Shown: positions 21,347 to 38,663, counted from the first letter of the stretch. The stretch: DNA of 64,000 bases from an uncultured Thermoleophilia bacterium (GCA_963715985.1 CAVQSP010000010.1:96001-160000), one strand, 5' to 3'. Program-made: numbers and translations. The notes: generated from the sequence alone by a model not told the origin.

Positions 21347-22187
21347 CGCCTGGGTGACCGTCGAGATCGCACGGCACAAGGACAGGCCGCGCACGCGCGA
21401 CTACATCGGGTACCTCATCGAGGGCTTCGAGGAGCTTCGCGGCGACCGCCTGCGCGCCGACGACCCCGCCATCGTGGGCGGGCTCGGCTGGTTCGAGGGC
21501 CGCGCCGTGCTCGTGGTCGGCCACCAGAAGGGCCGGACGCTGGACGAGCAGGAGCACCACAGCTGGGGCATGGCCAAGCCTGAGGGCTACCGCAAGGCCC
21601 AGCGGCTGTTCGCGCTCGCCGAACGCCACTTCCTGCCGGTGCTCACGTTCGTGGACACGCCGGGCGCGTACCCGGGCGTGGCCGCGGAAGAGGGCGGCCA
21701 GGCGCGCGCCATCGCGGAGACCATGCTCAAGATGGCGCGCCTCACGGTGCCCGTCGTGGCCACTGTGATCGGCGAGGGCGGCTCCGGCGGCGCCCTGGCG
21801 CTGGCCGTCGCCGACCGTGTGCTCATGCAGGAGAACGCCACATACTCGGTCATCACGCCCGAGGGGTGCGCCGCCATCCTGTGGCGGGACGCGGCCTTCG
21901 CGCCACAGGCCGCGGAATCGCTCAAGCCGACGGCCTCGCAACTGCTGGAGCTCGGCGTGGTGGAGAAGGTCATCGCCGAGCCGCGCGGCGGCGCTCACCA
22001 CAATCCCGAGGCCGCTGCGGCCACGGTGGGCGAGGCCATCACGGCGGCGCTCGAGGAGCTCGCGCCGATCCCGCCGGAGCAGCGCCGCCGCATGCGCCGG
22101 CGCCGCTTCCAGGGCCTCGGCGACTGGGCCGACCCCGAGATGTCGCCGGGCGCCTTCTCCCTCTTCGGGGGCTACGCCGCGCCCTGA
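21165..22187 (+). CDS. accA: Acetyl-CoA carboxylase carboxyltransferase alpha subunit (start uncertain)
   Basis: GHQKGR, PEGYRKA, DTPGAYPG, GEGGSGGALA. Confidence 0.93.
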   Translation: MRNLNEPPQPPDEREARVGWLRARLSELKLLQRMPGVNLSEEIDKLQTRLKSLQHESRRNDAWVTVEIARHKDRPRTRDYIGYLIEGFEELRGDRLRADDPAIVGGLGWFEGRAVLVVGHQKGRTLDEQEHHSWGMAKPEGYRKAQRLFALAERHFLPVLTFVDTPGAYPGVAAEEGGQARAIAETMLKMARLTVPVVATVIGEGGSGGALALAVADRVLMQENATYSVITPEGCAAILWRDAAFAPQAAESLKPTASQLLELGVVEKVIAEPRGGAHHNPEAAAATVGEAITAALEELAPIPPEQRRRMRRRRFQGLGDWADPEMSPGAFSLFGGYAAP

Positions 22188-24009: not shown

Positions 24010-24645
24010 TCAGAGCTCCTTGAGCACGGCGCCGAGGCGCTTCTTGACGCCGTGCTGGATGTTGCGCAGCCCGGGCGTGCCGAACAGCCAGATCTGGGCG
24101 ACCGGATCGGCGCCGGCGATCACGCTGCCGCCACCCTCGGCGGGGACCACGGCGATCGGCAGCAGCATGGCCGTGGGCGCCCTTGGGTCCAGCTCGAAGG
24201 CCTTGGCCGCGGCCACCGGCACCGCGACCTGCAGGAGCACGTACTCCTCAGGGAGGCGCTCGTCGATCTCGGGCCCCCTCGTCTGGGCGACGATCGTGAA
24301 GTCGTTGGCCTCGAGGAGCTCGATGAGGCGTGCCAAGGCTGCGCGCGGAGGGACCGAGAGCGTGTGAGAGGTCCGCCAGGCGCCTCTTCTGGCGTGTTCG
24401 GCGGCGTCTTCCGGCACTGGGTACGTCGCGCGGAGGTACTCCATGATCTCCTCCGAGCTCGTGAAGACCTTGTCGCCGTCCTGCAGCATGGGGACGCTGC
24501 TCTGGCCGGAGACGGCGACGACCTCGGGGCGCTTCTCCTTGTCGGCCGAGACGCTCGCGCTGACGTAGGTCAGCTCCAGCTCCGTCATGACCTGCCGCAC
24601 GCGGTGGCAGTCGGGGCACCATTCGAGTTGGTAGAACGTGATCAT
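24010..24645 (-). CDS. Glutaredoxin/GST-N domain fused to DUF302-like domain
   Basis: WCPDC, SGQSSVPML; C-terminal half resembles DUF302. Confidence 0.7.
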   Translation of the reverse strand: MITFYQLEWCPDCHRVRQVMTELELTYVSASVSADKEKRPEVVAVSGQSSVPMLQDGDKVFTSSEEIMEYLRATYPVPEDAAEHARRGAWRTSHTLSVPPRAALARLIELLEANDFTIVAQTRGPEIDERLPEEYVLLQVAVPVAAAKAFELDPRAPTAMLLPIAVVPAEGGGSVIAGADPVAQIWLFGTPGLRNIQHGVKKRLGAVLKEL

Positions 24646-24699
24646 CTGACCTCCGTCAGTGGTGGTTGCGAAGAGCGTGACTGTCGTGCGGGCGCCGGC

Positions 24700-26628
24700 T
24701 CAAGCCAGCGGGCGCCCGAGCGCGGCCGGGTCAGTCACCGGCGCGAGGCACGTGGTGCCGCGGCACACGTAGGCGGCGAGGCCGGGCGGCCCGCCGGCAG
24801 GGCCGGTGATACTGAGAGCCTCGAGGCGGGATGCGTCCGCGGCGTCACCGGGGTCGAGGAGTTGCACAGTGCGCAACGGCCGCGCCGCGGCGAGCGCCGC
24901 GGCGTGCAGGCGCCGGGCGGCAGGGTCGTCGCGGGCGCCGGCTACGACGATGTGGTCGGGCCGGTCGATGTACCGCAGGAGCGCCCTGCCGTAGGCGGCG
25001 GCGGCGACCCCGTACTGCTCGTGGGACGAGACCCAGCCCATCAGGATCTCGAGGGCAGCGTCACGCCACTTGGCTTCGCCGGTGTACGCCTCGAGGCGCA
25101 TGAGGACGTCGGCCATCAGCGCGTTCTCGTCCAGCACCGGTAGCGGTCGGCCCAGCAGGCCGGCGCTGTCGCCGGCCGTCGGGAGGCGGTCGTGCAGGCG
25201 GCCGTCGGGGGCGCGGAGGTGCTCGCCGGCCCAGCCGGCGAGCTCAGCCGCGCCCTCCAGCCACCGCCGCTCGGCGGTGACTTCGTAGGCGTCGAGGAGC
25301 GCGGCCGCGAGCGACGCCTGGTCGGCCAGCAGCGGCGACCCGGGCGCGGGCTGTCCTTCGGCCGTGAGGTAGTGCGCCGCCGCGCCGCCGCGCCGACCGG
25401 TCTCCCAGAGGCGCGCGAGCGCGGCGATCGCAGCATCGCCCAGGTCCTGACGCTGCAGCAGCACGGCGCCGCGCAGCAAGGCCCGCACGGCCAGCGCGTT
25501 CCAGTCGACGATGACTGTGGGATCCACGTACGGCTCCGGCAGTCCGGAGCGTCCCTCGGCGTCCAGAAGATAGTAGCTCTCGTCAGCGTCCTGGCTGCCG
25601 CCGAAGGCCGGCGGGTCGGCCTGCCAGAGGGTGGCGAGGAGGTAGTCGAGCGTGCCGCCGGCCGCGTCTCGGTACAGCACCATCGACCCGAGGCCGGCCG
25701 GCGAGTCGTCGCCGTGTTCGCGCGCCAGGACGGCGGCGTCGAGGTACAGGACTGCGAGCCGCGCGTTGTCCTCCAGCATCTTCTCGTAGTGGGGCACGGA
25801 CCAGTCGCGCCGTGTGGCGTAGCGGAAGAAGCCGCCGGCGACGCCGTCGTAGATGTCGCCGCGGGCCATGCCCTGCAGCGTGGTGCGCACCACTTCGTGC
25901 ACGCGCCCGGCGCTGAGCAGGCCGCTCGTGTGCGGCGCCACGTGCGCGGGTGCGCCGGCGCCGCGCATCTCCGCGTAGGCCAAGGCGAACTCGAACACGT
26001 CCGCCTGCGGGAACTTGGGGTCCGCGCCCAGGCCGCCGTGCACGGGGTCGAAGGAGCGCACCACCTCCAGCGCGATCTCGGCTGGGATGTCGCCGGGCAC
26101 GTCCGGGTCGCCTTCGAAATCGGGCGCCGGCCCGTCGCTGCGGAACGGCGTGGAGCCCAGGTACGCGCGCGCCGCGTCGGCGTCGGCGGCGCGCGCGTGC
26201 TCGGCGGTCTCCAGGGCCAGCAGCGCCACGCGGTTGGCGGCGAAGAAGTCGGTGACTCGCGTCAGGCTCTGCAGCATCTGGTCGGGCGGGATGTACGTGC
26301 CGCCGGTGATCGTGTCGCCGTTGGCGGCCAGGAACGCGGTGGTGGGCCAGCCGCCCATGTTGTACCGGCGGTTCACGTCGGGATGCCGGTCGTTGTCCAC
26401 ACGCACCGGCACGAACCCCTGGTTGATGGCGGTGATGACGCGCTCATCGGAGTAGCTGGTCTCGTCCATGACGTGGCACCAGTGGCACCACACCGCGGAG
26501 AGCGAGAGCAGGATCGGGCGCCCGAGCCGGTGCGCCTCCTTGAAGGCGTCCTCGCTCCAAGGGCGCCAGTGGATCTCGTGGGCCCGGTTGGGGCGCGGCG
26601 AGAAGCGGAAGTCGGTGTCCCCGTCCAT
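24700..26628 (-). CDS. Thioredoxin-domain protein, YyaL/SSP411 (DUF255) family
   Basis: WCHWCHVM, GGWP, PKFP, WSVPHYEKML. Confidence 0.92.
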   Translation of the reverse strand: MDGDTDFRFSPRPNRAHEIHWRPWSEDAFKEAHRLGRPILLSLSAVWCHWCHVMDETSYSDERVITAINQGFVPVRVDNDRHPDVNRRYNMGGWPTTAFLAANGDTITGGTYIPPDQMLQSLTRVTDFFAANRVALLALETAEHARAADADAARAYLGSTPFRSDGPAPDFEGDPDVPGDIPAEIALEVVRSFDPVHGGLGADPKFPQADVFEFALAYAEMRGAGAPAHVAPHTSGLLSAGRVHEVVRTTLQGMARGDIYDGVAGGFFRYATRRDWSVPHYEKMLEDNARLAVLYLDAAVLAREHGDDSPAGLGSMVLYRDAAGGTLDYLLATLWQADPPAFGGSQDADESYYLLDAEGRSGLPEPYVDPTVIVDWNALAVRALLRGAVLLQRQDLGDAAIAALARLWETGRRGGAAAHYLTAEGQPAPGSPLLADQASLAAALLDAYEVTAERRWLEGAAELAGWAGEHLRAPDGRLHDRLPTAGDSAGLLGRPLPVLDENALMADVLMRLEAYTGEAKWRDAALEILMGWVSSHEQYGVAAAAYGRALLRYIDRPDHIVVAGARDDPAARRLHAAALAAARPLRTVQLLDPGDAADASRLEALSITGPAGGPPGLAAYVCRGTTCLAPVTDPAALGRPLA

Positions 26629-26763
26629 GGGCCTGACATTCCCACGCGCACGGCAGGTGAATCGTGGAGCTGCGCTGCCGGCCCCACGGCGGGTCGCGTG
26701 TCCGCCTGCGCCGCCGCCTGTAGCGTGCTCGCCCGCGCGGTGGCGCGATACGATGGTCGCGTC

Positions 26764-27828
26764 ATGGACACACCCATCCCTCTCATCGAGCTCGCGGGCA
26801 CGCACCGCGAGATCGGGCGCCAGATCGGCGAGGAGTCGCGAGACGTCATCGCGCGCGCCCTGGCTCGCTACGAGGTCCGGTTCCCGGTGCTCGCCGGCAT
26901 GACCTTCACAGCGGCCGTCGAGGCGGCGCGCCCATACCTGCGGCCGGCCGAGGAGTACCTGCCCGACGCCGTGGACGAGCTGCGCGGTATCGCCGAGGGC
27001 GCCGGCGTGCCGTTCGAGCAGCTCCTCGCCCTGAACTGCAGCGAGGAGACCACGTGCGCGGCCGACTGGGTGTGGCCGCCGGCGGAAGGCCACTGCACCT
27101 CGTTCGCCTTCGTGGCCGGCGGGCGTACCGTGGCCGGCCACAATGAAGACTGGTACCCGGACGACATCGACGCGCTTGTGGTGCGCCGAACGCGGGTGCG
27201 CGGCGGGGCAGAGTACATCTCCGTGGGCCCCGCCTACTACCTGCCGATCACCGGCGTCACGGCCCGCGGCTTCTCGAGCGCGGCCAACACCGTGTACTGC
27301 CGCGACGAGCGCGTGGGCGTGCCCAACAATGTCGTGCTGGCCGGCGTGCTGGAGGCCGGCGGCCTCGACGACGCCGCGGCGCTCATCGCAGGGGCGGAGC
27401 GGGCGCGCGGCTCCAACCACCTCTTCGCCGACGAGACCGGCCGGATCCTGGACGTGGAGACGTCTGCCACCCGCCTGGCGCGCATGGACGGCGGCGCCTG
27501 CTTCGCGCACACCAACCACTACGTGTCGGCCCAGCTTGCGCCGCAGGACGCGAGCCGGTCGGAGGGGTCGCCCAAACGGCTCGCTCGTGCATACGGATTG
27601 CTGGCCGCCGGACTCGACGCCGGCACGGACCCTGTCGACCTGGCGATGTCCGTGCTCAGGGACCACGCCAACGCGCCCGAGTCCATCTGCGGGCACTGGA
27701 ACGACGCCGACCCGGCGCAGGACCAGTCGGTGACCACGGTGAGCATGGTGTGGGAGCCGGCCGAGCGGCGCGTGCGCGTCGCGGCCGGCCAGCCGTGCGA
27801 GCATGAGTACGTGACCTACGAGCTCTGA
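26764..27828 (+). CDS. C45 family autoproteolytic acyltransferase/peptidase
   Basis: HCTS nucleophile, GHNEDW, HTNHY. Confidence 0.9.
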   Translation: MDTPIPLIELAGTHREIGRQIGEESRDVIARALARYEVRFPVLAGMTFTAAVEAARPYLRPAEEYLPDAVDELRGIAEGAGVPFEQLLALNCSEETTCAADWVWPPAEGHCTSFAFVAGGRTVAGHNEDWYPDDIDALVVRRTRVRGGAEYISVGPAYYLPITGVTARGFSSAANTVYCRDERVGVPNNVVLAGVLEAGGLDDAAALIAGAERARGSNHLFADETGRILDVETSATRLARMDGGACFAHTNHYVSAQLAPQDASRSEGSPKRLARAYGLLAAGLDAGTDPVDLAMSVLRDHANAPESICGHWNDADPAQDQSVTTVSMVWEPAERRVRVAAGQPCEHEYVTYEL

Positions 27829-28327: not shown

Positions 28328-28534
28328 TCAGTTGGCGGTGCTGAAGTGGAGCGCCCGGTAGAGCGGGCAGCATCCGGTGGCGGCGGTGACGAGCAGGACC
28401 GCGCCGAGGGACGCGGACAGCGCGCCGAAGGGCCGGCGATGGGTGGCGCAGGCCACGGCGCCTACGGCGACGAGGGCTGTGCCGGCTCCCGCGCGCACCA
28501 GCCTGTCGGGGGTGCTTTCGTTCTTCTCAAACAT
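28328..28534 (-). CDS. DUF2892/YgaP-like small membrane protein
   Basis: KNESTPDRLVR, two TM segments, GCCPLY. Confidence 0.85.
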   Translation of the reverse strand: MFEKNESTPDRLVRAGAGTALVAVGAVACATHRRPFGALSASLGAVLLVTAATGCCPLYRALHFSTAN

Positions 28535-28862
28535 GTGACTCCTGACTCTCCAGAATGTGGGCCTTGTCTGCCATCTCGCGGCCGACGATCTCGTCGATGA
28601 GCGCGCAGGCCTGCGAGAGGCGCCTGTCGACGACCTCCCACAGCACGCGACCGTCCTGGCGAGAGCGCTTCACGAGGCCCTCCCGCTGCAGCACCGCCAG
28701 GTGCTGTGAGACGTTGGGCCGGCTGACCTCGAGCGCCTCCGCGAGTTCGGTGGGCGTGAGCGGGTCCTCGCACAGCAGATGCATCATCTCGTGGCGTGTA
28801 GGGTTCGCGAGGGCTGCGAACACCGCGGCGTGGATCTCGTAGCGCTGTCGTTCCATACTCAT
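28527..28862 (-). CDS. ArsR/SmtB family regulator
   Basis: FAALANPTR, NVSQHLAVL; Cys in LLC and QAC. Confidence 0.92.
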   Translation of the reverse strand: MSMERQRYEIHAAVFAALANPTRHEMMHLLCEDPLTPTELAEALEVSRPNVSQHLAVLQREGLVKRSRQDGRVLWEVVDRRLSQACALIDEIVGREMADKAHILESQESHV

Positions 28863-28976: not shown

Positions 28977-29372
28977 ATGGACATGCAGGTCTACTTCCCC
29001 GGCGGCAAGCGCGTGTACGCGGACTACGGCGGGTTCACCATCGAGACCGACCAGCCTGTGCGCGGTGGAGGCGACGGCTCCGCGCCGGCCCCCTTCGATC
29101 TCTTCCTTGCGTCCATCGGGACCTGCGCCGGCATCTACGCGCTCGGCTTCATGCAGCAGCGCGGCATCGACGCGGAGAACGCGAAGCTGACGATGAGCAT
29201 GGCGCGCGACCCCCAGACGGGGATGATCGGCGAGATAGGCATCGAGCTGACGCTCCCCCCCGAGTTCCCTGAGAAGTACCGGGATGCCATCGTGAACGCC
29301 ATGAACCTGTGCGCGGTGAAGAAGCACATCCACAATCCGCCGGAGTTCTCCATCACCACGGTGATGAGCTGA
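28977..29372 (+). CDS. OsmC/Ohr family protein
   Basis: TDQP..GG, PFDLFLASIGTC, second Cys in LCAVKK. Confidence 0.9.
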   Translation: MDMQVYFPGGKRVYADYGGFTIETDQPVRGGGDGSAPAPFDLFLASIGTCAGIYALGFMQQRGIDAENAKLTMSMARDPQTGMIGEIGIELTLPPEFPEKYRDAIVNAMNLCAVKKHIHNPPEFSITTVMS

Positions 29373-29968
29373 TGGCCGACGCGTTCGACCCGACTCACGC
29401 CGGCCGACTGGAGGAACCGGCGCGGCTCGAGGCGCTGCCGCAGGCGGCCGTCGTCTCGCTGCTCCGCCTGAGCGGCGACGAGGTCGTCGTGGACTACGGC
29501 GCCGGCACCGGCGTCTACACGATGGCCGTCGTGGAGGCTGTGCCGCGCGGCCGCGTCATCGCCGTGGAGGCGCTGCCGACGCTTGCGGACAAGCTCCGCG
29601 AGCGGGCAGCGGCCGTGCCGGGAGCGCTCGAGCGCCTGGAGATCGTGACCACCGACGCGAACGCTGTCGCGGCAGCCGACGGCGTCGCCGACCGCATCGT
29701 CATGGTCGACGTGCTCCATCACCTGTTCGACCAGCCGGCGGCGCTCGCCGAAGTGGTGCGGCTGCTGCGCCCGGGCGGGCTGCTCGTTATGGCGGACTGG
29801 GGCGACAAGCCCGCGCCCTGCTCGGCCCGCCCACTCGACCACGTGCTCGGCCTGGCCGCTGTGCGCGACATCGTGCGCGACATGGGCCTCGACGAGCTTG
29901 AGGCGCATGAGCAGGGCGACGGCCTGCCCTACCACCTCACGGTGGTGGCGCGGAAGCCGGCGGACTGA
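29372..29968 (+). CDS. Class I SAM-dependent methyltransferase
   Basis: VVDYGAGTG, VLHH, LRPGG. Confidence 0.88.
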   Translation: MADAFDPTHAGRLEEPARLEALPQAAVVSLLRLSGDEVVVDYGAGTGVYTMAVVEAVPRGRVIAVEALPTLADKLRERAAAVPGALERLEIVTTDANAVAAADGVADRIVMVDVLHHLFDQPAALAEVVRLLRPGGLLVMADWGDKPAPCSARPLDHVLGLAAVRDIVRDMGLDELEAHEQGDGLPYHLTVVARKPAD

Positions 29969-30026
29969 TGCGACGCCGCGGCGGCGGGTCTCCCCCTCGC
30001 CCGCCGCTGCGGCGCTGCTTCACCAG

Positions 30027-30278
30027 CTACACCGTCCTGCGTACGAACAGCCGCAGGTAGCCTGGCCCCTCGAGCGTGCCGAGGAACTCGTTGCCGGTCC
30101 GCTTGGCCCAGGCCGGGATGTCGCTGCCAGCGCCCGCGTCGGTGGCCTGGACCTCCATCACTCCGCCGGCGGAGACGCCGGCGATGGCTTTGCTGGCGGC
30201 CAGGACGGGCACCGGACACAGGGTGCCGCGGCTGTCGACGATCTTCTCGACCGGGATGGTTGTGAGGTCTTCAGTCAT
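30027..30278 (-). CDS. tusA: Sulfur carrier, TusA family (copy 2)
   Basis: DSRGTLCPVP, TD..DIPAW. Confidence 0.92.
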   Translation of the reverse strand: MTEDLTTIPVEKIVDSRGTLCPVPVLAASKAIAGVSAGGVMEVQATDAGAGSDIPAWAKRTGNEFLGTLEGPGYLRLFVRRTV

Positions 30279-30326
30279 GACCCTGCTGTGCGCCATGGCC
30301 GGCATCCTCAAACCAGCGGGCGGACG

Positions 30327-30737
30327 TCAGAACACCTGGACGACGTCCGCCTCCTCACACTTCACGATGTACTCGGCGATGCCGACGATGTCGTCGCAGA
30401 TGTCGACGAAGTCGTCGAGGCCGCCGGCGCCCAGCTCTTTCGGGCCGTGCCGCACACGTCGACTCTGCACCTTGCCGTCCGCGCGCAGCTTGCGCAGGTT
30501 CTCGAGGGGGTCCGGTACCGCGTGCTCGGCCATGCCGGCCCGCATCTCGTCGTGGAGCTCGGGCCGGTCCACGTGTGTGCCGTTCTCGGCGACGTCCTTG
30601 CGGAACGCGTAGGCGCCGCCGAGCAGCAGGTATATATCCACGTCCATGTCCAGGGCCACGGCGCCGCCGGTGACGGTGCTCGTGACGAGGAGCTTCTCCA
30701 GGCTGCCGCTGGCCAGCCCGATCGCCATCTTGCTCAT
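30327..30737 (-). CDS. DsrE/DsrF-like protein (probable compensating frameshifts near 30440-30467)
   Basis: GAVALDMDVDIYLLLGG, DDIVGIAEY; VDVCGTA read in the alternate frame. Confidence 0.8.
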   Translation of the reverse strand: MSKMAIGLASGSLEKLLVTSTVTGGAVALDMDVDIYLLLGGAYAFRKDVAENGTHVDRPELHDEMRAGMAEHAVPDPLENLRKLRADGKVQSRRVRHGPKELGAGGLDDFVDICDDIVGIAEYIVKCEEADVVQVF

Positions 30738-30849
30738 AGTGCCCCCTTTCGGTCCGCCTCCCGGCGGGACGTCGTCAAGCAGCCGACGCCGGCGGCGCCC
30801 CTCGCGGGGCGCCGCCGGCAGACGGTCGAACAGCGCGGTGCGGCGTCCG

Positions 30850-31989
30850 TCACGCGGCCTCGGCTGCCGCCCGGTTCTTGGCCCTCGCCGCGGCTGTCTC
30901 CTCCGCGTGCACCTTCACCGTCGAGAAGTAGATGGCCAGCGGCCGGTAGGCCAGGTGTGCCCACTTGCCGAACGGCACCTCGAGCACCAGCATCGGCACT
31001 ACGCCCATAAGGTGGATGATGTACATCACGTTGGCCGCCTCATCGAGGCCGGAGCGGTGCAGCAGGTTCTGCAGGACGCCCGTGACCGCCACCCAGAGCA
31101 GCAGGTAGAGGAACATCCAGTCGCTCTCGTGCGAGTGCTGGTGCTGGGGGCTGTCCTTCTTGATACGGCCGCGCAGGTTGATGATCACCGCGGCGATCAG
31201 CCCGATCGAGGCCAGGTACCCGAACGCGTGCACCCGCCAGTCGATCGCCGGCCCGGACTGCATCCTGTACAGGAAGAACATGATCAGCACGAGCATGGTC
31301 ACGTAGCTGAGCATCAGCGCCAGATGGATGGCCCACGGACGTTTGCGCTCACACTGGCGCATCTTCATCTGCGTGAAGAAGTGGTACGGCAGCTGGGGCA
31401 GGGCCGCGAGGTACGAGCCGATGCCGGCGCCCGAGCCGCGCATCACGAAGCGCCACATGCGCAGGACGTTGATGCCCAGCAGGATGACCAGGACGATGGC
31501 CATGGTCCAGTCGAAGCGGTGCACGTAGTGGGCGGGCAGGAAGGCGTTCTCGCCGTCGTACACGCTGAAGCTGCCGCCGTTCAGGATGCCGAACAGGATG
31601 AAGCCGACCGCCGTGAGCACCGCCGCGATCACGATGGCGATGATCTCCCAGGCGGGCGAACGGTAGAACAGCCCGCTGAGGCCGCTGAAGTCGTACTTGG
31701 ACGTGAGCCAGCGGCGCATGCTCATCATGGTCTCGCCGGGCTCGGCCTCCTTGGGGCACTGCTCCGAGCACTCGCCGCAGTAGTAGCACATCCACGGCTC
31801 GGTCTGGCTCTTGAGCTTGTCCTCAAGGCCCAGCTGCAGGGCGTGCATCGAGCGCCGCGGGATGATGGTGGACCCTTCCGAGTGCACGCACACCGCGGAG
31901 CAGTTGCCGCAGTTGAAGCACTTGTTGACGCTCTCGCCGCCGTAGGCCTGGAGCTCGTCGGCGAGCCCCGGTTTGATCTGTGTCGCCAT
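30850..31989 (-). CDS. QmoC-like membrane protein (2x[4Fe-4S] HdrC-like domain plus heme-b-type TM domain)
   Basis: CFNCGNCSAVC, CYYCGECSEQCP, several TM helices with His, PFGKWAHLAYRP. Confidence 0.88.
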   Translation of the reverse strand: MATQIKPGLADELQAYGGESVNKCFNCGNCSAVCVHSEGSTIIPRRSMHALQLGLEDKLKSQTEPWMCYYCGECSEQCPKEAEPGETMMSMRRWLTSKYDFSGLSGLFYRSPAWEIIAIVIAAVLTAVGFILFGILNGGSFSVYDGENAFLPAHYVHRFDWTMAIVLVILLGINVLRMWRFVMRGSGAGIGSYLAALPQLPYHFFTQMKMRQCERKRPWAIHLALMLSYVTMLVLIMFFLYRMQSGPAIDWRVHAFGYLASIGLIAAVIINLRGRIKKDSPQHQHSHESDWMFLYLLLWVAVTGVLQNLLHRSGLDEAANVMYIIHLMGVVPMLVLEVPFGKWAHLAYRPLAIYFSTVKVHAEETAAARAKNRAAAEAA

Positions 31990-32000
31990 TGTCTCCCCGC

Positions 32001-32483
32001 CTAGATGAACAGGTTGACGTTGGCCTCGTCGGCGTGACCGAGGTACGCGGCCACGCCTTCGAACTCGACGTCGTCGATCAGCTCCTCCTCCTTGAAACCG
32101 AGGATGTCCATGCTGAGCGTGCAGGCGACGAACTTGACGCCCTGCTCGCGAGCGCTGTCGAACAGTTCCTCGAGCGACATGCCGCCGGCGTCCTTGGTGG
32201 CTCTACGCATCATGGGGCTGCCGGCGCCGGCGAAGTTCATCTTGGAGAGGCCGAGCTTCTTGGTGCCCTTGGGCATCATCTTGCCGAACATCGACTGCAG
32301 AGTGGTCTTCTTGGCGGCGCTCTCGACCTTCTCCGTCTTGCGCAGGATGTTGAGCCCCCAGAAGGTGCAGAAGATGGTGACGTCGTCGCCCATCGCCGCG
32401 GCGCCGTTGGCGATGATCAGGGCGGCCATGACCTTGTCGAAGTCACCGCTGAACAGGATGATCGTCTTCTTGGTGGTGTCCAT
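32001..32483 (-). CDS. DsrE2/DsrF-like sulfur-transfer family protein
   Basis: FSGDFDK, FCTFWGL, LSKMNFAG, VACTLSMD. Confidence 0.92.
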   Translation of the reverse strand: MDTTKKTIILFSGDFDKVMAALIIANGAAAMGDDVTIFCTFWGLNILRKTEKVESAAKKTTLQSMFGKMMPKGTKKLGLSKMNFAGAGSPMMRRATKDAGGMSLEELFDSAREQGVKFVACTLSMDILGFKEEELIDDVEFEGVAAYLGHADEANVNLFI

Positions 32484-32758
32484 CAGGACCCCTCTCTCGG
32501 GACAGCTTGATAGGGGAAGTAACCGTCGTCGTCGACCTCTTTGATCTCGGCGATCCAGCCGTACTTGCGCAGGCCCATCACCCAGAAGGTGACTTCACGC
32601 GTGGGCTTGCCGACGGCCGCGGCGATCTGCGGGATGGTCTGGGGCCCGTCTTCGAGTGCCTTGAGGATGACGGGCCTCATCGCATGTTCGTCGCGGATGA
32701 CCTCGCGCACGGGGCGCAGGGCCGGCGTGGGTGTGGTCTCGGGTGCGGTCGTGCTCAC
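32483..32758 (-). CDS. Small winged-helix protein
   Basis: ILKALEDGPQTIPQIAAAVG..MGLRKYG; start and stop overlap both neighbours. Confidence 0.8.
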   Translation of the reverse strand: MSTTAPETTPTPALRPVREVIRDEHAMRPVILKALEDGPQTIPQIAAAVGKPTREVTFWVMGLRKYGWIAEIKEVDDDGYFPYQAVPREGS

Positions 32759-34491
32759 TGGCACACCACCTCCAGCATGCCGTCGATCATGCTTCGGATC
32801 TGGGCGTCGGTGTAGCCCTGCAGGTCGATGGCGTCGGACGGGCACACCGGGACGCAGCCGCCGCAGCCCTTGCACGCGGTCTTGGAGATCGTCGCGATCT
32901 CCTTGCCGTCGAGCGGGACCCTGGCGATGGCGTCGTACGGGCACGTGGTCTCGCAGGCGCCGCACCAGGTGCACGCGTCGGTGTCCACCGTGGCGACCAG
33001 CGGGTCGAGTTCCGCGAACCCCCGCTTGAGGATGGCGGCGCTCTGCGTGACCGCCGCCAGGCCCGAAGCGACACTCTCGGAGGAGGTGCGCGGCGCCTGG
33101 CAGCAGCCACAGATGTAGGCGCCGTCCACCACGGTCTCCACGGGGCGCAGCTTGGGGTGGATCTCGTTGTAGAAGCCGCTCTGACCGATAGGGAGCTTGA
33201 GGGCCTTGGTGAGGCCCTCGTTCTCGCGCGGCACCATGCCGGTGACGAGCACGACCAGGTCGGCGGTGAGCGCGACCTCCTCGCCTTCGCTCAGGAGGTC
33301 GCGGGCGGTCACGGTGACGCCGCCGCCCGGCGCCTTCTCGACGGCCGGCGGCTCGTCGTCGGGGAACTTGATGAAGGCGGAGCCCTTCTCCAGCGCCTCG
33401 GCGTACAGGAGTTCGTACTTACCGTAGGTGCGGATGTCGCGGTAGAAGTGGTACTGGTGCACCTTGCCGGGCAGGTCGGCGACCATGGTCGCCGTGTGCA
33501 CGGCGGCGGTGCAGCAGTAGCGCGAGCAGTAGGTGTTGCCACCCTCGACGTCCTCTCCCTGACGGGAGCCGACGCAGTAGATGTAGGCGACGGTCTTGAC
33601 CGGGCGGCCGTTGTACTGCAGCGGGCCGCCCTCCTCCACCATCTTCTTGAACTCGGCGATGGTGACCACGCCGTCCAGGCCGTAGCCGAGCTCGCCGTCG
33701 GCGGGCTGGTACGTGTCGGCGCCGGTGGCGATGACGATGGAGCCCACGTCCACGGTGATGGTCTCGAGCTGCTCGCCGTGCTGCACGGCCAGCGTGACCT
33801 CGTAGTTGCCGAAGCTGCCCGCCTTGGCGACCAGCTCGGCCTGCGTGAACACGGTGATGGCGGGGTGGCTGCGCACGGCCTGCTCGAGCTTCGCGATCAG
33901 CTCGAGGCCGTTACGACCGTGCGGGAACATGGTCTTGAACTCGCCCACCCGGCCACCGAGCTTGGCCTCCTTCTCGATGAGGAAGACGGAGAGGCCGACC
34001 TCGGCCAGGCCGAGGGCGGCGCGCAGGCCGGTGATGCCGCCGCCCACCACGAGGCTCTTGGGTGTGGTCTCGACGACGATCGGCTCGAGCGGGTCGGTAA
34101 GGCGCGTGCGGTTGATGCCCGCGCGCACCAGGCGCAGGGCCTTCTCGGTGGCGCCGGCGTGGTCGTCGGTGTGCGTCCACGAGCACTGCTCGCGCACGTT
34201 CACCTGTGTGTACTGGAACGGGTTCATGCCCGCGCGCTTGGCGACGTCGCGGAACGTGAAGGTGTGCAGCTTGGGCGAGCAGGAGGCGATGACGAGCCCG
34301 TCCAGGCCCTGCTCCTGCGCGTCGGCGATGATCTCGCTCTGCGTGGCGTCCGAGCACGTGAACATGGCCGTCTTGGCCACGCTCACGCCCTCCTCCTTCT
34401 CGACGGCGGCGACGACCTCGTCCACATCCACGTGGTCGCCGATGTTGCCGCCGCACTGGCAGACGTAGACGCCGATCTTCCTGGCGCTCAT
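32755..34491 (-). CDS. hdrA: Heterodisulfide reductase subunit A family protein (QmoB-like position)
   Basis: GVYVCQCGGNI, ASCSP, VREQCSW, GGGITG, CVGSR, YCSRYCC, C-terminal 2x[4Fe-4S]. Confidence 0.93.
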   Translation of the reverse strand: MSARKIGVYVCQCGGNIGDHVDVDEVVAAVEKEEGVSVAKTAMFTCSDATQSEIIADAQEQGLDGLVIASCSPKLHTFTFRDVAKRAGMNPFQYTQVNVREQCSWTHTDDHAGATEKALRLVRAGINRTRLTDPLEPIVVETTPKSLVVGGGITGLRAALGLAEVGLSVFLIEKEAKLGGRVGEFKTMFPHGRNGLELIAKLEQAVRSHPAITVFTQAELVAKAGSFGNYEVTLAVQHGEQLETITVDVGSIVIATGADTYQPADGELGYGLDGVVTIAEFKKMVEEGGPLQYNGRPVKTVAYIYCVGSRQGEDVEGGNTYCSRYCCTAAVHTATMVADLPGKVHQYHFYRDIRTYGKYELLYAEALEKGSAFIKFPDDEPPAVEKAPGGGVTVTARDLLSEGEEVALTADLVVLVTGMVPRENEGLTKALKLPIGQSGFYNEIHPKLRPVETVVDGAYICGCCQAPRTSSESVASGLAAVTQSAAILKRGFAELDPLVATVDTDACTWCGACETTCPYDAIARVPLDGKEIATISKTACKGCGGCVPVCPSDAIDLQGYTDAQIRSMIDGMLEVVCQ

Positions 34492-37274
34492 GAGGCCACC
34501 TCCACCATCGCCGGCTCAGAGACCGCGGGGGCTTCCTTGGCTTTGGCCTTCTCGATGTGCGCGGCGGCCTGGGCTACCGCGGCCCCCGCGTGCAGGATGG
34601 AGTCGGGGATGTCCTTCACGCCCGAGGCCGAGCCGGCCACGAACACGCCGGGCAGGTTGGTGCGCCCGGGGTCCAGGTCCTCGTCGGCCTCGCCGACGTA
34701 CATGTACTCGTCGAGGGCAAGCTGACCCTCGTCGAACAGGTGGGCGGCCTCCATGTTGGGGCGCACGCCCACGGCCAGCACGACCATGTCGTACTCGGCC
34801 TCCACGATGCCGCCGTCTCCCTCGATGTCTTCGTAGCGGACGATGAGGTTACCGTTCTCCTTCTCCGTGATCTTCGCCACACGGCCCTTGACGAACATGG
34901 CGCCCATGTCCTTGGCCTGCTGGTAGAACTCGTCATAGCCCTTGCCCACGGCGCGCACGTCCATGTAGTGGACGGTCACGTCGGCCAGCGGCAGGGCGCC
35001 CATCACGAGCTGGTTGTGCTTGACGGAGTACATGCAGCAGATGCGCGAGCACAGCGGGTTGTCCACCTGCGCGTCGCGCGAGCCCGTGCACATGATGTAG
35101 GCGATGCTGTCCGGCACCTTGCCGTCGCCGGGGCGCACCACGCCGTTGAACGGGCGCGTCGGGGCGAGCAGGCGGTCCATCTGCATGCCGGTGATGACGT
35201 TGGCGAACTTGCCGTAGCCGTACTCCGGCTTGGCGTCGGCCGGGAAGAGCGTGAAGCCGGTGGCCAGGACGACGGCGTCCACGTCCACCTCGAGGTCCTC
35301 GCCGCGCATGCTGAAGTCGATGCAGTCGGCCGGACAGGCGTCCACGCAGGCGTGGCACTCGGAGCACACGCCGCAGTCCAGGCAGCGGGCCGAGCCGAGG
35401 AAGGCTTCGTCCTCGGTCATGGGGCCCTCGGTCTCGCCGAAGTCCGTGGGGGAGGCGCTCATCTGGGCGTGGGACTCCAGGGGCTCGCGGCGGTCGTACA
35501 CGTCCTGCCGCCCGAGCACCTTCTTCTTGTCCGCGACCGGGAGCGCCTCGTCGAAGGCGTCCGCGTCCAGGGCCTCGCCCTGGAGGTAGCGGTCGATCAT
35601 GAAGGCGGCGCGGCGGCCTTGGCCGACGGCCGTGGTGATCATCGTAGGGCCGGTGACCACGTCTCCGGCGGCGAAGATGTGCGGCACCGACGTCTGCAGC
35701 GTGTCGGGATCGGCCTTGAGCGTGCGGTTGCCGTTGGTCTCGAGGCCGAACTTCTCGGTGTCGGCGCCCATGCCGGCGGCGACGATGACCACGTCGCACT
35801 CCACCGTCTGCTGCTTGCTCTCGTCGTACTCGGGGGCGAACTTGCCCTCGGGATCGAAGACGCAGGAGCAGACCTTGAGCACGGCGCTCTCGACCCTGCC
35901 GTTGCCGGTGAAATGGTTGACGCCCCAGCCGTCGTGCAGCGTGATGCCCTCGGCCTTGGCCTCCTCGACCTCGAAGTCGTGGGCCGGCATGTCCTCGCAG
36001 CACTCCAGGCTGGCCTGGTGGACGGCTGCGGCGCCGAGGCGGCGCGCCGAGCGCGCCGCGTCGATGGCCACGTTGCCGCCGCCGACCACGAGCACCTTCT
36101 TGCCGGTGAGGTCGACGTTGCGGCCGAGCTTGACGTCGGCGAGGAAGGTGAGGGCGCTCATGACGCCGTCCTTGTCCTCGCCGGGCACGTTCAGCTTCAC
36201 AGCCCGGTGCGTGCCCGTCGCCATGAGGACGGCGTCGAAGCCGCCCGCGGCGAGCTCCGCCGGGTCCTCGACCCTGACGCCGGTCTCGATCTCGACGCCG
36301 ATGGCCGTGACGTTGGAGATGTCGTCGTCGATCACGTCGTTCGGAAGGCGGTAGGCGGGGATGCCGAGGCGGAGCATGCCGCCCGCGGCGGGCGCCGCCT
36401 CGAGGATCTTGACGCCGTAGCCCTTGCGCGCGAGCTGCCAGGCGGCCGTGAGGCCGGCCGGGCCCGAGCCCACCACGGCGACCTTCTTGCCGTTCTGCTC
36501 GGGCTTCTCATGGCCTTGCGGCTCCGCCTGGCCGTACCGCTTGTCGGCGATGAAGCGCTTGAGGCGGCGGATGGGCAGCGGCCCCTCGAGCTCGCCGCGC
36601 GTGCACTCGCCCTCGCAGGGCGCGTAGCAGGCGCGCCCGAGCGAGCCCACGAGCGGCGTCGTCTCGAGCACGAGGTCGAAGGCCTGGTCGTACTCGCCGC
36701 TGCGCACGCGGGCCACGTAGCCGTGCGCCTTGATGCCGGCGGGGCACTCGTAGGTGCAGGGCGACACGCCCTCACGCGTGATCACGGCCTTCTTGGGGAC
36801 CGCCTGCGGAAAGGCGATGAAGGCGGCGCGCCGCGACACCATGTCGGCGTTGAACTCGTCGGGCACGGCCACGTTGCATGCCATCTCGCACTGGCGGCAG
36901 CCGGTGCACGCGGCCTCGTCGATGAACTTGGGGTTCTGGCGCACGGTGGCGTGGTAGCCGCCGTTGCCGTCGGTGCGGATGCCCTCCACCTGGGCGTAGG
37001 TGAGGACGTCGATGTTGGGGTGGTGGATGGTGGCGCCCATCTTGGGGGTGGAGATGCAGCTGGCGCAGTCGAGCGTGGGGAAGACCTTGCTGAGCAGGAT
37101 CATCTTGCCGCCCACGCTGGGCGCCTTCTCGACGACGAGCACCTTGTAGCCCATGTCGCCGAGCTTGAGGGCCGACTCCATCCCGCCGATGCCGCTGCCC
37201 ACCACGAGAGCGTCGTACTTGAGCGGTGCACCTTCGGCGCCCCGCTCGATGGCCCCGCTGCGTTCGCCATTCAT
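34488..37274 (-). CDS. HdrA-family protein with inserted GltD-like NAD(P)H-binding module (HdrL-like)
   Basis: GSGIGG, KVFPTLDCASC, CTGCRQC, LGRACYAPCE, GSGPAG, GGGNVAID, CTGSRD, CSRICC. Confidence 0.9.
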   Translation of the reverse strand: MNGERSGAIERGAEGAPLKYDALVVGSGIGGMESALKLGDMGYKVLVVEKAPSVGGKMILLSKVFPTLDCASCISTPKMGATIHHPNIDVLTYAQVEGIRTDGNGGYHATVRQNPKFIDEAACTGCRQCEMACNVAVPDEFNADMVSRRAAFIAFPQAVPKKAVITREGVSPCTYECPAGIKAHGYVARVRSGEYDQAFDLVLETTPLVGSLGRACYAPCEGECTRGELEGPLPIRRLKRFIADKRYGQAEPQGHEKPEQNGKKVAVVGSGPAGLTAAWQLARKGYGVKILEAAPAAGGMLRLGIPAYRLPNDVIDDDISNVTAIGVEIETGVRVEDPAELAAGGFDAVLMATGTHRAVKLNVPGEDKDGVMSALTFLADVKLGRNVDLTGKKVLVVGGGNVAIDAARSARRLGAAAVHQASLECCEDMPAHDFEVEEAKAEGITLHDGWGVNHFTGNGRVESAVLKVCSCVFDPEGKFAPEYDESKQQTVECDVVIVAAGMGADTEKFGLETNGNRTLKADPDTLQTSVPHIFAAGDVVTGPTMITTAVGQGRRAAFMIDRYLQGEALDADAFDEALPVADKKKVLGRQDVYDRREPLESHAQMSASPTDFGETEGPMTEDEAFLGSARCLDCGVCSECHACVDACPADCIDFSMRGEDLEVDVDAVVLATGFTLFPADAKPEYGYGKFANVITGMQMDRLLAPTRPFNGVVRPGDGKVPDSIAYIMCTGSRDAQVDNPLCSRICCMYSVKHNQLVMGALPLADVTVHYMDVRAVGKGYDEFYQQAKDMGAMFVKGRVAKITEKENGNLIVRYEDIEGDGGIVEAEYDMVVLAVGVRPNMEAAHLFDEGQLALDEYMYVGEADEDLDPGRTNLPGVFVAGSASGVKDIPDSILHAGAAVAQAAAHIEKAKAKEAPAVSEPAMVEVAS

Positions 37275-37708
37275 GCGTCGGCCTTTCGCGACGGACCCAG
37301 GCCCGAGAGGGCCGCGGCGTACTCGTGCATGTAGTTGGTGAAGGGCTCCGCGCACACGGAGCAGACCGCGGCCATGCGCACGCGCTGCGGCTCGTAGCCC
37401 TTCTCGACGAGAAGGTCCTGCGCGGTCTGCATGATGCCGGAGGTGCGCTCCGCGCAGTCCGGCAGGTACGCGCACTCCTCGCCGTCGGCGGCGATGAAGA
37501 CACCGTCGAAGCCCTGCTCCATCGCGTACAGGATCCAGCTGGGCTTCACCGCGCTGGTGCAGGGCAGGTTGATGACCATGACCTTGGGCGAGTAGTGCAT
37601 GTGCGAGCTGCCCGCCAGGTCGATGCCCGGGTCGGAGATGTTGTTGGTGCTGAAGACCAGGATGCGCGGGTCGTAGGCCTGGCCCTCAGATGCCTCGGCC
37701 GCAGCCAT
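37271..37708 (-). CDS. MvhD/FlpD-like iron-sulfur subunit, atypical Cys pattern
   Basis: PRILVF, DLAG, LPCTS, GFDGVFI, ECAY, CSVC. Confidence 0.82.
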   Translation of the reverse strand: MAAAEASEGQAYDPRILVFSTNNISDPGIDLAGSSHMHYSPKVMVINLPCTSAVKPSWILYAMEQGFDGVFIAADGEECAYLPDCAERTSGIMQTAQDLLVEKGYEPQRVRMAAVCSVCAEPFTNYMHEYAAALSGLGPSRKADA

Positions 37709-37710
37709 CG

Positions 37711-37962
37711 TCACTTCATCTTCCTCACGAAGAGGCGCATGTAGCCCGGCTCCTCGACCACGCCGAGGTACTCGTGACCCATCTTCTTGGACCACGCCGG
37801 GAGGTCCTTGGTGGTGCCGCTGTCGGTGGCCTGGACCTCCATGACGCCGCCGACGGAGACGCTGGGGATGCCCTTCTTGGCGGCGAGGATCGGACCGGGG
37901 CACGAGGTTCCGCGCGCGTCCACGATCTTCTCTACCTGGATGGTGCTGAGATCTTCCGACAT
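37711..37962 (-). CDS. tusA: Sulfur carrier, TusA family (copy 1)
   Basis: DARGTSCPGP, DLPAW; AAAGGAG RBS. Confidence 0.93.
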   Translation of the reverse strand: MSEDLSTIQVEKIVDARGTSCPGPILAAKKGIPSVSVGGVMEVQATDSGTTKDLPAWSKKMGHEYLGVVEEPGYMRLFVRKMK

Positions 37963-38102
37963 CGTTCTCTCCTTTGTGTCGCCGGCCCCTCGGCGCGGCT
38001 CTTGGACGCTTGTGCTTGTGCTTTCTTTCGCAAACGACGGGCGCAGGAGGCCCTCGTCTGGTGGTGCCTGTGGTCTGCGGTGGCCTTGCTTCCGGGAGGC
38101 GC

Positions 38103-38549
38103 TTATGCGCTCGCGGCCGGTGCGGCCGGTGCGGCCTGAACGGGTGCGACGGCCGGTCTCGCCGACGCCTCGGCGCCGGCGTCGGCCTCCAGAAGCTCGG
38201 CGGCGTGCAGTGACTCGCCCTGAGCCAGGTGCTGCTCCACCAGCGCCTGACGGATCAGGGCGCACGCCTGGATGAACTTCTGGTTGGTGACGCGGTAGTA
38301 CACGGTCTGGGCTTCCTTGCGGGAGGTGACCAGGCCGCGCTCCTTCAGCACGCGCAGGTGCTGCGACACGTTGTGCACCGAGATGCCGATCTCGGCGGCG
38401 AGGTCGCCGACGCACTTCTCGCCGTCGCCGATGGCGTGCAGGATGGCCTGGCGATGATCGTTGGCCAGCGCCTTACACAACTCGGCGTGCATGTGGTAGA
38501 CGGCCTTCAGATCTGGTGACTGGGTGCTGTCTGTGTCCATGGTCTCCAC
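38103..38549 (-). CDS. ArsR/SmtB family regulator
   Basis: CKALANDHR, NVSQHLRVL, QAC. Confidence 0.92.
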   Translation of the reverse strand: METMDTDSTQSPDLKAVYHMHAELCKALANDHRQAILHAIGDGEKCVGDLAAEIGISVHNVSQHLRVLKERGLVTSRKEAQTVYYRVTNQKFIQACALIRQALVEQHLAQGESLHAAELLEADAGAEASARPAVAPVQAAPAAPAASA

Positions 38550-38572
38550 GAGTTCATGTATTTGCGTACTTG

Positions 38573-38601
38573 CTTATATACGCTACCGGGAAACGGGTCA
38601 A
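38573..38601 (-). promoter_or_regulatory. sigma70-like promoter of the arsR-tusA-hdr operon
   Basis: TTGACC-N17-TATAAG followed by an AT-rich tract (possible operator). Confidence 0.55.
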
Positions 38602-38663
38602 GTGCGGGCATTCACAAGAGCGCCCGGCCGGGGTCCGGCGCAGTCGCGTGGTAAGCTTCGGCC

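Follow-up and report, generated by a model that had tools for sequence, protein, structure and literature searches.

Several complexes that conserve energy have HdrA-type flavoproteins at their centre. An operon built around two such proteins in an uncultured Thermoleophilia bacterium raises the question of what the encoded complex reacts with, since HdrB, adenosine 5'-phosphosulfate (APS) reductase and LbpA are all missing from it. The operon lies in a stretch of 64,000 nucleotides (nt) (GCA_963715985.1 CAVQSP010000010.1:96001-160000), which was analysed at its full length and is called the window here; its G+C content is about 70%. The ten genes run along the minus strand from 30027 to 38540 in the order arsR, tusA1, mvhD-like, hdrL, hdrA, winged-helix gene, dsrE2, qmoC-like, dsrE-like and tusA2 (Pfam, NCBIfam). 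On balance, the evidence leans towards a sulfane-sulfur:quinone oxidoreductase that would also use NAD(P)H or ferredoxin, that is, a membrane-anchored Qmo/Hdr-like complex whose partner would be TusA-borne sulfane sulfur, delivered through a TusA/DsrE2/DsrE-like relay.

All ten genes named in a preliminary description of this DNA were recovered with the identities given there, on the evidence of Pfam, NCBIfam and their coordinates (Table 1). The edge of the operon had been placed at 38601; the arsR start is at 38540 (or at a GTG at 38549). The spacings at the nine junctions, read down the operon, are 140, 2, -4, -4, 74, -1, 11, 112 and 48 nt. Start and stop codons, which had been called largely overlapping, thus overlap at three of nine junctions (-4, -4 and -1 nt), with gaps of 2 and 11 nt at two others and of 48-140 nt at the rest. 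Because of these spacings the core from tusA1 to the qmoC-like gene can be called tightly packed, and the earlier wording was too strong.

Table 1. Genes of the operon and the region upstream of it, in the coordinates of the window (aa, amino acids; pLDDT, predicted local distance difference test)
Feature	Position	Strand	Evidence and remarks
likely promoter region	38541-38620	-	TTGACC, 15 nt, TATATA
arsR	38103-38540	-	HTH_5 49.3 bits; ATG at 38540, GGAGA 5 nt upstream; GTG at 38549 possible
tusA1	37711-37962	-	PF01206 69.6 bits
mvhD-like	37271-37708	-	FlpD 100.8 bits (cut-off 22.3)
hdrL	34488-37274	-	928 aa; PRK12771 457.7 bits, HdrA2 451.3 bits (NCBIfam)
hdrA	32755-34491	-	578 aa; PDB 5odc_A, E = 1.2e-112
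winged-helix gene	32483-32680	-	65 aa; without Pfam match; AlphaFold2 pLDDT 95.2
dsrE2	32001-32483	-	PF13686 203.3 bits
qmoC-like	30850-31989	-	379 aa; NF038018 186.4 bits (cut-off 300)
dsrE-like	30327-30737	-	136 aa; without Pfam match in window copy; double frameshift at about 30433-30465
tusA2	30027-30278	-	PF01206 60.5 bits

The arrangement is conserved in other genomes. A QmoC-like scan of species-representative genomes gave 75 loci, all from metagenome-assembled genomes, and these were compared by tblastn with the window proteins. Of the 56 loci whose sequence extends 6 kb or more beyond the qmoC-like gene on its upstream side, 33 have tusA. The conserved order is tusA-mvhD-hdrA'/hdrL-hdrA-(winged helix)-qmoC, accompanied by dsrE2 and/or dsrE. 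An mvhD homologue is present at all 33 tusA loci, the winged-helix gene at 31, dsrE2 at 25 and arsR at 23. By record label, these loci belong to Actinomycetota (16), Thermodesulfobacteriota (7), Elusimicrobiota (4), Myxococcota (1) and others including Krumholzibacteria (5), and the TusA-linked clusters span at least four named phyla. Since the same order recurs at 33 of 56 loci and in several phyla, the arrangement is more than chance. The preliminary description had proposed an HdrA/QmoC-type complex, anchored in the membrane and linked to carriers of the TusA and DsrE families; gene identities and conserved synteny support this proposal, and genes of the tusA/dsrE families stay beside the homologous hdrA genes at the 33 tusA loci. 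Pfam annotation of seven loci also placed a PF02635 DsrE gene after qmoC or dsrE2 in L064, L065, L073, L079 and L082. The Thermodesulfobacteriota loci have sigma-54/PAS activators nearby, not ArsR. In addition, a qmoC-like gene (38% identity) occurs in a record labelled Heimdallarchaeota (L055), where a tusA-like gene follows at a distance of about 5 kb; this record has a long branch in the tree and a different gene context.

The nearest non-TusA relatives are hydrogenase-linked QmoC clusters (MvhAG-MvhD-HdrA-HdrA'-QmoC). One of them is found in the same Thermoleophilia genome (L135, C9:23000-33000), in the order hdrA, qmoC, hdrA, canonical mvhD, mvhG, mvhA. In Acidobacteriota (L040 and L051) the order is hdrA, canonical mvhD, mvhG, mvhA, hdrA', winged helix, qmoC, with a sigma-54 activator nearby. 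The window proteins are 39% identical to these relatives in HdrA (C9; 40% in L040, for a partial alignment), 38-41% in HdrA' and 59-60% in QmoC. Such a cluster looks like an H2:quinone (possibly plus ferredoxin) HdrA complex with QmoC in place of HdrBC. HdrA, HdrA', the winged-helix protein (in part of the clusters) and QmoC are present in both cluster types, which thus have a common base and differ in their input module. From homology and gene position, TusA-bound sulfur would be to the window complex what H2/MvhAG is to its sisters and what APS/AprAB is to Qmo.

The input side is where the MvhD-like subunit departs from the canonical form. The window protein matches MvhD (5odc_D, E = 3.3e-14), with STNN where that chain has CNWC, and it lacks the N-terminal CxxCxYxGA and the GCxxGDCHY-type Cys of canonical MvhD. 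In an alignment of 28 sequences (A4), the only invariant Cys of the atypical MvhD are C79, C116 and C119, with a C-terminal C[ST]VC, and these three are the only Cys of the four Elusimicrobiota proteins. A motif table of 54 homologues showed that this pattern follows tusA: all 30 tusA-adjacent homologues lack CxxCxYxGA and all 30 have C[ST]VC, whereas 20 of the 24 other homologues are canonical, and the four exceptions include two tusA loci, L023 and L035, that the adjacency filter missed. By its position and Cys pattern, the remodelled MvhD-like protein is the likely contact point for TusA sulfur. Pairwise complex prediction of the MvhD-like protein with TusA (A4, A3) returned "no answer" (0.00) in both runs, made without controls, and is evidence neither way.

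The QmoC-like subunit would provide the membrane link. It has an HdrC-like N-terminus with two [4Fe-4S] clusters (8rvv_C, E = 1.8e-11) and a hydrophobic C-terminal domain with conserved His, in which eight overlapping hydropathy windows over the threshold mark about 5-6 distinct hydrophobic segments. This is the architecture of QmoC, in which a pair of CxxCxxCxxxC motifs precedes a membrane domain that keeps conserved His; by homology, haem may be bound there. The eight cluster Cys, C213, H222 and H345 are present in all 65 non-canonical and all 30 canonical QmoC rows, and H326 in 61 of 65 and 30 of 30, respectively.

The QmoC-like subunit is nevertheless distinct from canonical QmoC. NF038018 is matched over the whole length (E = 1e-54), with a score of 186.4 bits that stays below the curated cut-off of 300. 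Among 61 genomes that belong to the same class as one Desulfosarcinaceae genome, the scores of this model are bimodal (387-535 bits for 60 matches and 177-207 bits for 12), and the window protein falls in the low mode. In a QmoC tree of 65 rows, with 15 near-identical rows dropped, a branch (Shimodaira-Hasegawa-like approximate likelihood ratio test, SH-aLRT, 100) separates the 14 canonical rows from all others, the window protein among them; L089 alone of these 14 was checked beside aprA, and the others are canonical by score. The Desulfosarcinaceae genome, from a sulfate reducer, has both forms, a canonical qmoC (502 bits) about 4 kb from aprA (964 bits) and a tusA-linked copy (190 bits) about 165 kb away. 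The window flavoproteins are 35% and 27% identical to the canonical QmoA and QmoB of this genome, and 45% and 39% identical to HdrA' and HdrA of tusA-linked loci. Contrary to what the preliminary description expected of a true Qmo, the QmoC-like protein does not nest in the canonical clade, and AprA was not found elsewhere in the 88.8%-complete genome.

With regard to other partners, profile searches of the operon and of its own genome agree with the earlier claim that HdrB, APS reductase and LbpA are absent as partners of the operon. The assembly has 4.35 Mb in 22 contigs, of which C10 carries the window; it is 88.8% complete with 7.3% contamination, and every absence from this genome is subject to that completeness. 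No operon protein has a CCG domain (Pfam). The genome has 16 CCG matches, on contigs C4, C9, C11, C14, C15 and C17 and none on C10, and HdrB-type CCG proteins are found in other clusters, annotated as hdrL/hdrA, mvhD, metV, metF and hdrC/B on C11 (MetFV-Hdr type) and as hdrC, hdrB, hdrA and mvhD on C9. The best AprA match in the genome reaches 38 bits against a cut-off of 641.75, and DsrA has zero matches. The single GcvH-like (GCV_H) gene of the genome is on C13, and there is no GCV_H domain in the operon. [NiFe]-hydrogenase genes are located on C9, C6 and C19. Among 11 cluster-bearing genomes, AprA is over the cut-off in two and DsrA in three, and eight have neither.

Two further loci of the genome were recorded in these searches. 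A second hdrL/hdrA pair (L136, C11:300500-310500), 37% and 36% identical to that of the window, has a MetFV-HdrABC-MvhD-type layout; hdrL/hdrA are followed by a canonical mvhD, a methylenetetrahydrofolate reductase (MTHFR) C-terminal-like gene, an MTHFR gene and a gene for a CCG-domain protein, and the open-frame call joined hdrL and hdrA as one frame of 1523 aa. The [NiFe]-hydrogenase large-subunit matches at C6:14696-15862 and C19:8401-9567 both have a best score of 61.7 bits, second scores of 33.1 and 33.3 bits and a length of 443 aa. This pair may be a duplicated region or bin redundancy (7.3% contamination).

The flavoproteins of the operon are HdrL and HdrA. HdrL denotes an HdrA fused with an NfnB/GltD-like NAD(P)H module (in part after PMC12142623). 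The window protein fits this definition: its thioredoxin-reductase-like HdrA flavin adenine dinucleotide (FAD) domain, with flanks matching 5odc_A (E = 2.5e-98), is split at residues of about 170-640 by an NfnB/GltD-like NAD(P)H-FAD-2[4Fe-4S] module (4ylf_B for residues 170-567, E = 3.4e-60), and a DCASC stretch is retained. The NAD(P)H link proposed earlier is suggested for the window by this module; it is not universal, because in L064 (Thermodesulfobacteriota) and L073 (Elusimicrobiota) HdrL is replaced by an HdrA' of 429-469 aa with a ferredoxin-type insert (Pfam, on loci whose core genes were scanned), and the other loci of these two phyla have the same HdrA' order by tblastn hit order. 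HdrA aligns to 5odc_A with residues 4-234 and 236-573, and residues of about 235-307 of that chain are skipped. It has an N-terminal iron-sulfur (Fe-S) domain, an FAD domain and a C-terminal 2x[4Fe-4S] domain, as HdrABC-type HdrA does; the inserted ferredoxin domain and the DCSxC motif are missing, and "phgrngle" stands in place of "tndcsic" of 5odc_A. A comparison of Cys conservation found no Cys specific to the TusA-linked HdrA group, so the difference between TusA-linked and hydrogenase-linked forms lies in MvhD and the input module.

The 65-aa protein belongs to the shared base, as its gene is kept between the hdrA and qmoC-like genes in TusA-linked and in hydrogenase-linked clusters (L040 and L051). 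AlphaFold2 predicted a minimal winged-helix fold (pLDDT 95.2) with zero Cys. Its structural matches are generic (Foldseek, best E = 1.5e-3; VIA, Z of 10-11 tied across ArsR, MarR, Z-alpha and FeoC-type folds), and its Atlas matches are small clusters without name or labelled MarR. DsrD is not among the matches listed for this fold, which excludes nothing. T15, P17 and Y57 are invariant in 40 sequences. Though small, the family is genuine: of 1.84 billion representatives, 326 match at E <= 1e-10.

Of the sulfur carriers, both TusA copies have the PF01206 fold signature and the Cys-Pro-x-Pro motif of the family, and C21-P22-G23-P24 is invariant in 31 sequences. The tusA1 gene sits 2 nt upstream of the mvhD-like gene, and its product scores below the NCBIfam TusA equivalog (E. 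coli-type) cut-off (46 vs 78 bits); tusA2 is 66.7% identical to it (tblastn). The dsrE2 product is well over the PF13686 cut-off and reaches 86.5 bits in NCBIfam SulfCarrDsrE2 (NF047629; cut-off 210), so it is best regarded, by these profiles, as a DrsE_2-family protein outside the curated DsrE2 equivalog. Its Cys, in a V-[AI]-C-x-[LM]-S-M stretch (found by eye), is present in each of the 27 intact homologues, and the remaining one of 28 (L035) has a frameshift. In a Krumholzibacteria locus (L074), a gene for a 487-aa class-V aminotransferase of cysteine-desulfurase type (2490-3950) lies directly upstream of tusA, which is the case in one of seven annotated loci.

The gene of 136 aa had been taken for dsrE. 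The intact relatives bear this out in so far as it may be called a divergent DsrE-like gene, and the window copy, without Pfam match and with its conserved Cys out of frame, does not bear it out by itself. DNA alignment with L010, L014 and L037 revealed an inserted base (+1) and a deleted base (-1) separated by about 33 nt, and therefore eleven codons are out of frame; the H-[AV]-C-G-T-A-G motif of the relatives can be read in the window gene in the shifted frame alone. The three intact relatives match DrsE_2 (3/3, best E = 4.9e-4) and DsrE (2/3), all below the cut-offs. In hhalign, their Cys is aligned with that of PF02635 DsrE proteins of other loci, with a weak match (E = 0.0035, probability 9%), and the AlphaFold2 model of the intact relatives from a 3-row alignment was too poor for a fold search (mean pLDDT 48.4). 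Contigs of four wetland metagenome runs, aligned to 30000-33000, cover 30404-30605 at a depth of 0-3.3 with no indel row there, which is too thin to judge the frameshifts. Fragmented hdrL or other genes also occur in the related long contigs L010, L012, L014, L035, L061 and L066, and this suggests indel errors in such assemblies.

The regulator may be another link to sulfane sulfur. Passages of PMC12423496 describe ArsR-type regulators of sHdr-type systems, and define sulfane-sulfur-sensing ArsR repressors by a Cys pair, which is Cys50 and Cys116 in H. denitrificans sHdrR. The window ArsR scores 85.7 bits in NCBIfam HTH_metalloreg and 49.7 in BigR (cut-off 155), and its PDB matches are HlyU (6e-13), BigR (2e-9) and SqrR (2e-8). 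It has Cys25 and Cys96 (numbered from GTG 38549), which are kept in 17 of 24 unique cluster-linked orthologues. In the Elusimicrobium protein (L073), with best matches to SqrR (1.9e-14), BigR, HlyU and YgaV, both sensing Cys align residue for residue, and the sensing pair is present in the ArsR of all four Elusimicrobiota loci. As the sensing pair is present there and missing from the window protein, whose own Cys pair lies elsewhere, control by sulfane sulfur is well grounded for part of the family, and for the window operon it is only plausible. Upstream of arsR, a TTGACC-15 nt-TATATA element was found by eye about 20-30 nt from the start; a consensus promoter scan did not list it because of the 15-nt spacer. 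The same scan, which also covered terminators, gave no match at either end of the operon, and a search upstream of arsR and between arsR and tusA revealed no inverted or direct repeat that could be an operator, except a palindrome centred on TATATA.

How does the cluster relate to known systems? It resembles QmoABC, the quinone-interacting membrane-bound oxidoreductase found in sulfate reducers and in some sulfur oxidisers, in its pair of HdrA-like flavoproteins, its MvhD-like module and a QmoC-type subunit that combines 2x[4Fe-4S] with a membrane domain. It differs in that the window MvhD is a separate gene, whereas in QmoABC it is a domain fused to QmoB (PMC4911364, in part), and also in the NAD(P)H module of HdrL, the extra tusA and dsrE genes and the missing aprBA partner. 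Canonical Qmo identity was rejected, as the QmoC is below the cut-off and outside the canonical clade and AprA was not found in the 88.8%-complete genome. With MvhADG-HdrABC of methanogens (5odc) the window shares the HdrA core (E = 1e-112) and an MvhD-family adaptor; however, hydrogenase and HdrBC are missing, and TusA/DsrE stand in place of MvhAG. Compared with this complex and with the hydrogenase-linked QmoC clusters, the window MvhD lost the canonical Cys and gained C[ST]VC.

The sHdr-LbpA system is sulfur-oxidising and has a TusA/DsrE sulfur-transferase cascade, as given in passages of Tanabe et al. 2024 (PMC11094781). In this system, as in the window, genes for TusA and DsrE2-type carriers accompany one for an HdrA-family flavoprotein, and ArsR-type regulators occur with both (PMC12423496). 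However, the window operon has no sHdrB/sHdrC (CCG), LbpA or lipoate-assembly genes and does have a QmoC anchor and HdrL; furthermore, its HdrA keeps the ferredoxin domains, and the sHdrA chain 6tjr_A aligns to residues 147-488 alone. An sHdr identity was rejected for want of CCG subunits and LbpA (GCV_H) in the operon. DsrMK(JOP) is a membrane complex linked to quinol whose substrate is sulfur on a small Cys-bearing carrier (the DsrC trisulfide), and DsrK has a CCG catalytic domain. Its likeness to the window complex is a functional analogy only, in carrier-bound sulfur and the quinol link; the subunits are unrelated except for HdrC/HdrE-like elements, and CCG is absent in the window.

A published counterpart is "type II" Qmo. 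Text passages of Neukirchen et al. 2023 (PMC10504309) leave open what such Qmo-like proteins do where APS reductase is lacking. The window proteins fit the description given there, in a comparison by description and not by sequence. The tusA/dsrE linkage, the atypical MvhD and HdrL are not mentioned in those text passages, and supplementary figures 11-13 of that paper may show such neighbourhoods. No description of a tusA-linked HdrA/MvhD/QmoC cluster was found in the full-text literature, a search that left the supplements of PMC10504309 outside. With moderate confidence, we regard the tusA-linked cluster as undescribed so far.

For the complex as a whole, we infer its formation, substrate, direction of flow, energy coupling, bifurcation or confurcation and sulfur chemistry as follows. 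The QmoC-like subunit, with two [4Fe-4S] clusters and a haem-b-type membrane domain, would exchange electrons with the quinone pool. HdrA and HdrL would form the flavin core, at the positions of QmoB and QmoA. The NfnB-like insert of HdrL would be the NAD(P)H site, and in other phyla a ferredoxin-type insert would take its place. The atypical MvhD-like subunit would be the adaptor that joins the sulfur carrier to the electron chain, as canonical MvhD does for the hydrogenase MvhAG. The 65-aa winged-helix protein may serve the HdrA'-QmoC module as a small subunit with a structural or regulatory role, and sulfane sulfur would govern expression through the ArsR-type repressor. Of the two directions, we favour the reductive one, in which TusA-persulfide would be the terminal acceptor and yield H2S, with electrons from NAD(P)H and/or from quinol plus a low-potential donor. 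Reduction to H2S is our first choice because of the presumed induction by sulfane sulfur and the lack of an oxygen-adding catalyst. Alternatively, the oxidation of sulfide or persulfide would feed quinone and NAD(P)+, which is thermodynamically feasible on textbook potentials.

A more far-reaching proposal, possible in our opinion but doubtful, is that the complex represents an unrecognised class of flavin-based quinone-linked enzyme, in which TusA-SSH would stand in place of H2/MvhAG, APS/AprAB or heterodisulfide/HdrB and sulfur redox would occur at the three-Cys site of the MvhD-like protein. Under this proposal the sulfur step would be at the remodelled MvhD-like subunit, so a CCG-type HdrB would not be needed.

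Around the operon, the upstream flank has a divergent hexapeptide-repeat transferase and an aldo/keto reductase gene. Downstream there are a convergent pair for OsmC and an S-adenosylmethionine (SAM)-methyltransferase, a second ArsR, a thioredoxin-domain protein and a glutaredoxin/GST-N protein. The gene of this second ArsR-family protein (28530-28862, minus strand) is divergent from the OsmC-like gene (28977-29369, plus) and the SAM-methyltransferase gene (29309-29965, plus), and a homologue of it is kept downstream of the cluster in relatives, at variable distance. At 24013-27804 (minus), a 1034-aa DUF255/thioredoxin-like protein and a 211-aa glutaredoxin/GST-N protein make up a thiol-redox neighbourhood. 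Farther away, at 16148-22184 (plus), lies a housekeeping block for fatty-acid synthesis, with FabH-, FabD-, FabG- and FabF-like genes and the carboxyltransferase beta and alpha subunits of acetyl-CoA carboxylase. Near-identical pieces of the window were also found in contigs of the four wetland metagenome runs.

Other explanations of the operon have to be weighed. It could encode a general NAD(P)H (or ferredoxin):quinone bifurcating or confurcating module, FixABCX- or Nfn-like, for which TusA, DsrE2 and DsrE would be accessories (a sulfur supply for Fe-S clusters or a sensor) and not substrates. We consider this unlikely. The complete NfnB-like module in HdrL, the retained ferredoxin-type clusters of HdrA and a QmoC with all cluster Cys and three of four conserved His everywhere (H326 in 61 of 65 non-canonical rows) would all suit it, as would the missing sulfur-redox catalytic domain and the cysteine-desulfurase-type aminotransferase upstream of tusA in L074. 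However, this aminotransferase is seen at only that one of the seven annotated loci, and the hydrogenase-linked sisters are equally Fe-S-rich without tusA or dsrE nearby, so maturation is independent of TusA/DsrE. Moreover, none of the 33 loci of this class lacks tusA, the Cys pattern of MvhD co-varies with that gene, and the NAD(P)H insert is missing in L064 and L073 (Pfam) and in other Thermodesulfobacteriota and Elusimicrobiota loci (tblastn order).

A response to reactive sulfur stress, which we rate as rather unlikely, overlaps with the sulfane-sulfur:quinone oxidoreductase and differs from it mainly on energy coupling. Here TusA/DsrE2 would gather sulfane sulfur from persulfides and polysulfides and NAD(P)H would reduce it to H2S without energy conservation, QmoC being an anchor or an overflow. 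An ArsR-family repressor does head the operon in 23 of 33 TusA-linked loci, with the SqrR/BigR Cys pair in the Elusimicrobium version; the thiol/redox neighbours in the window (second ArsR, OsmC, 1034-aa thioredoxin-domain protein, glutaredoxin/GST-N) and a patchy distribution, as of an accessory function, point the same way. Known NAD(P)H persulfide/polysulfide reductases are single flavoproteins, and a membrane complex of four or five subunits with two flavoproteins goes far beyond their needs. In addition, the QmoC quinone module is kept in every version, and the Thermodesulfobacteriota versions are under sigma-54/PAS activators, not ArsR. Very improbable, finally, is an ordinary QmoABC for APS reductase, or an sHdr-type system, with its partners elsewhere or lost in the incomplete assembly (88.8% complete). 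The whole-length NF038018 match fits the former, and TusA plus DsrE2 are typical of sHdr clusters in the passages of PMC11094781. Against both stand the low-mode QmoC score (186 vs 300 bits) outside the canonical branch (SH-aLRT 100), the co-occurrence of both QmoC forms in one Desulfosarcinaceae genome with the canonical one near aprA, AprA at 38 vs 642 bits, no DsrA and no CCG on C10, the sole GcvH-like gene on another contig, and HdrB genes that belong to MetFV-Hdr-type and hdrCBA-mvhD clusters.

Several observations also weigh against the sulfane-sulfur:quinone oxidoreductase that we prefer. No site known to reduce disulfides or persulfides, be it a CCG domain or the CxxC found in flavoprotein disulfide reductases, is present in the subunits of the operon, and only position and Cys pattern would suggest a catalytic role for the MvhD-like subunit. 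The window ArsR has no Cys at the SqrR/BigR sensing positions, with His38 at the first (HlyU alignment) and Val104 at the second, the latter from a hand extension beyond the end of the HlyU alignment (residue 92-96). The dsrE-like gene is locally out of frame, and tusA2 is peculiar to the window genome, as tblastn gave no second tusA hit 3' of the qmoC-like gene at the related loci. Only some members of the family have the NAD(P)H module. The cluster is rare, being found in 4 of 401 sampled Actinomycetota genomes including this one (atypical MvhD, E <= 1e-25). Furthermore, the QmoC tree mixes TusA-linked and hydrogenase-linked forms, with at least three label changes forced; without a split between them, the membrane module is therefore generic.

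What would the finding mean? The locus and its 33 relatives offer a testable answer to the question of what Qmo-like "type II" proteins do without APS reductase, namely that a TusA/DsrE relay is the partner, and the atypical MvhD is a place to look for new sulfur chemistry. The modular logic would be that of one HdrA'-winged-helix-QmoC base whose input is a hydrogenase or a sulfur carrier. If the sulfane-sulfur reading is true, sulfur-cycling capacity would be added to lineages that are not regarded as metabolising sulfur, namely Thermoleophilia and other Actinomycetota, Elusimicrobiota and Krumholzibacteria. If the new enzyme class, tentative as it is, should also prove true, there would be a cytoplasmic respiration of protein-bound zero-valent sulfur in at least four phyla, mostly in bacteria without Dsr or Apr; in reverse, NAD(P)H or reduced ferredoxin would be made directly from sulfide, with quinone as co-acceptor.

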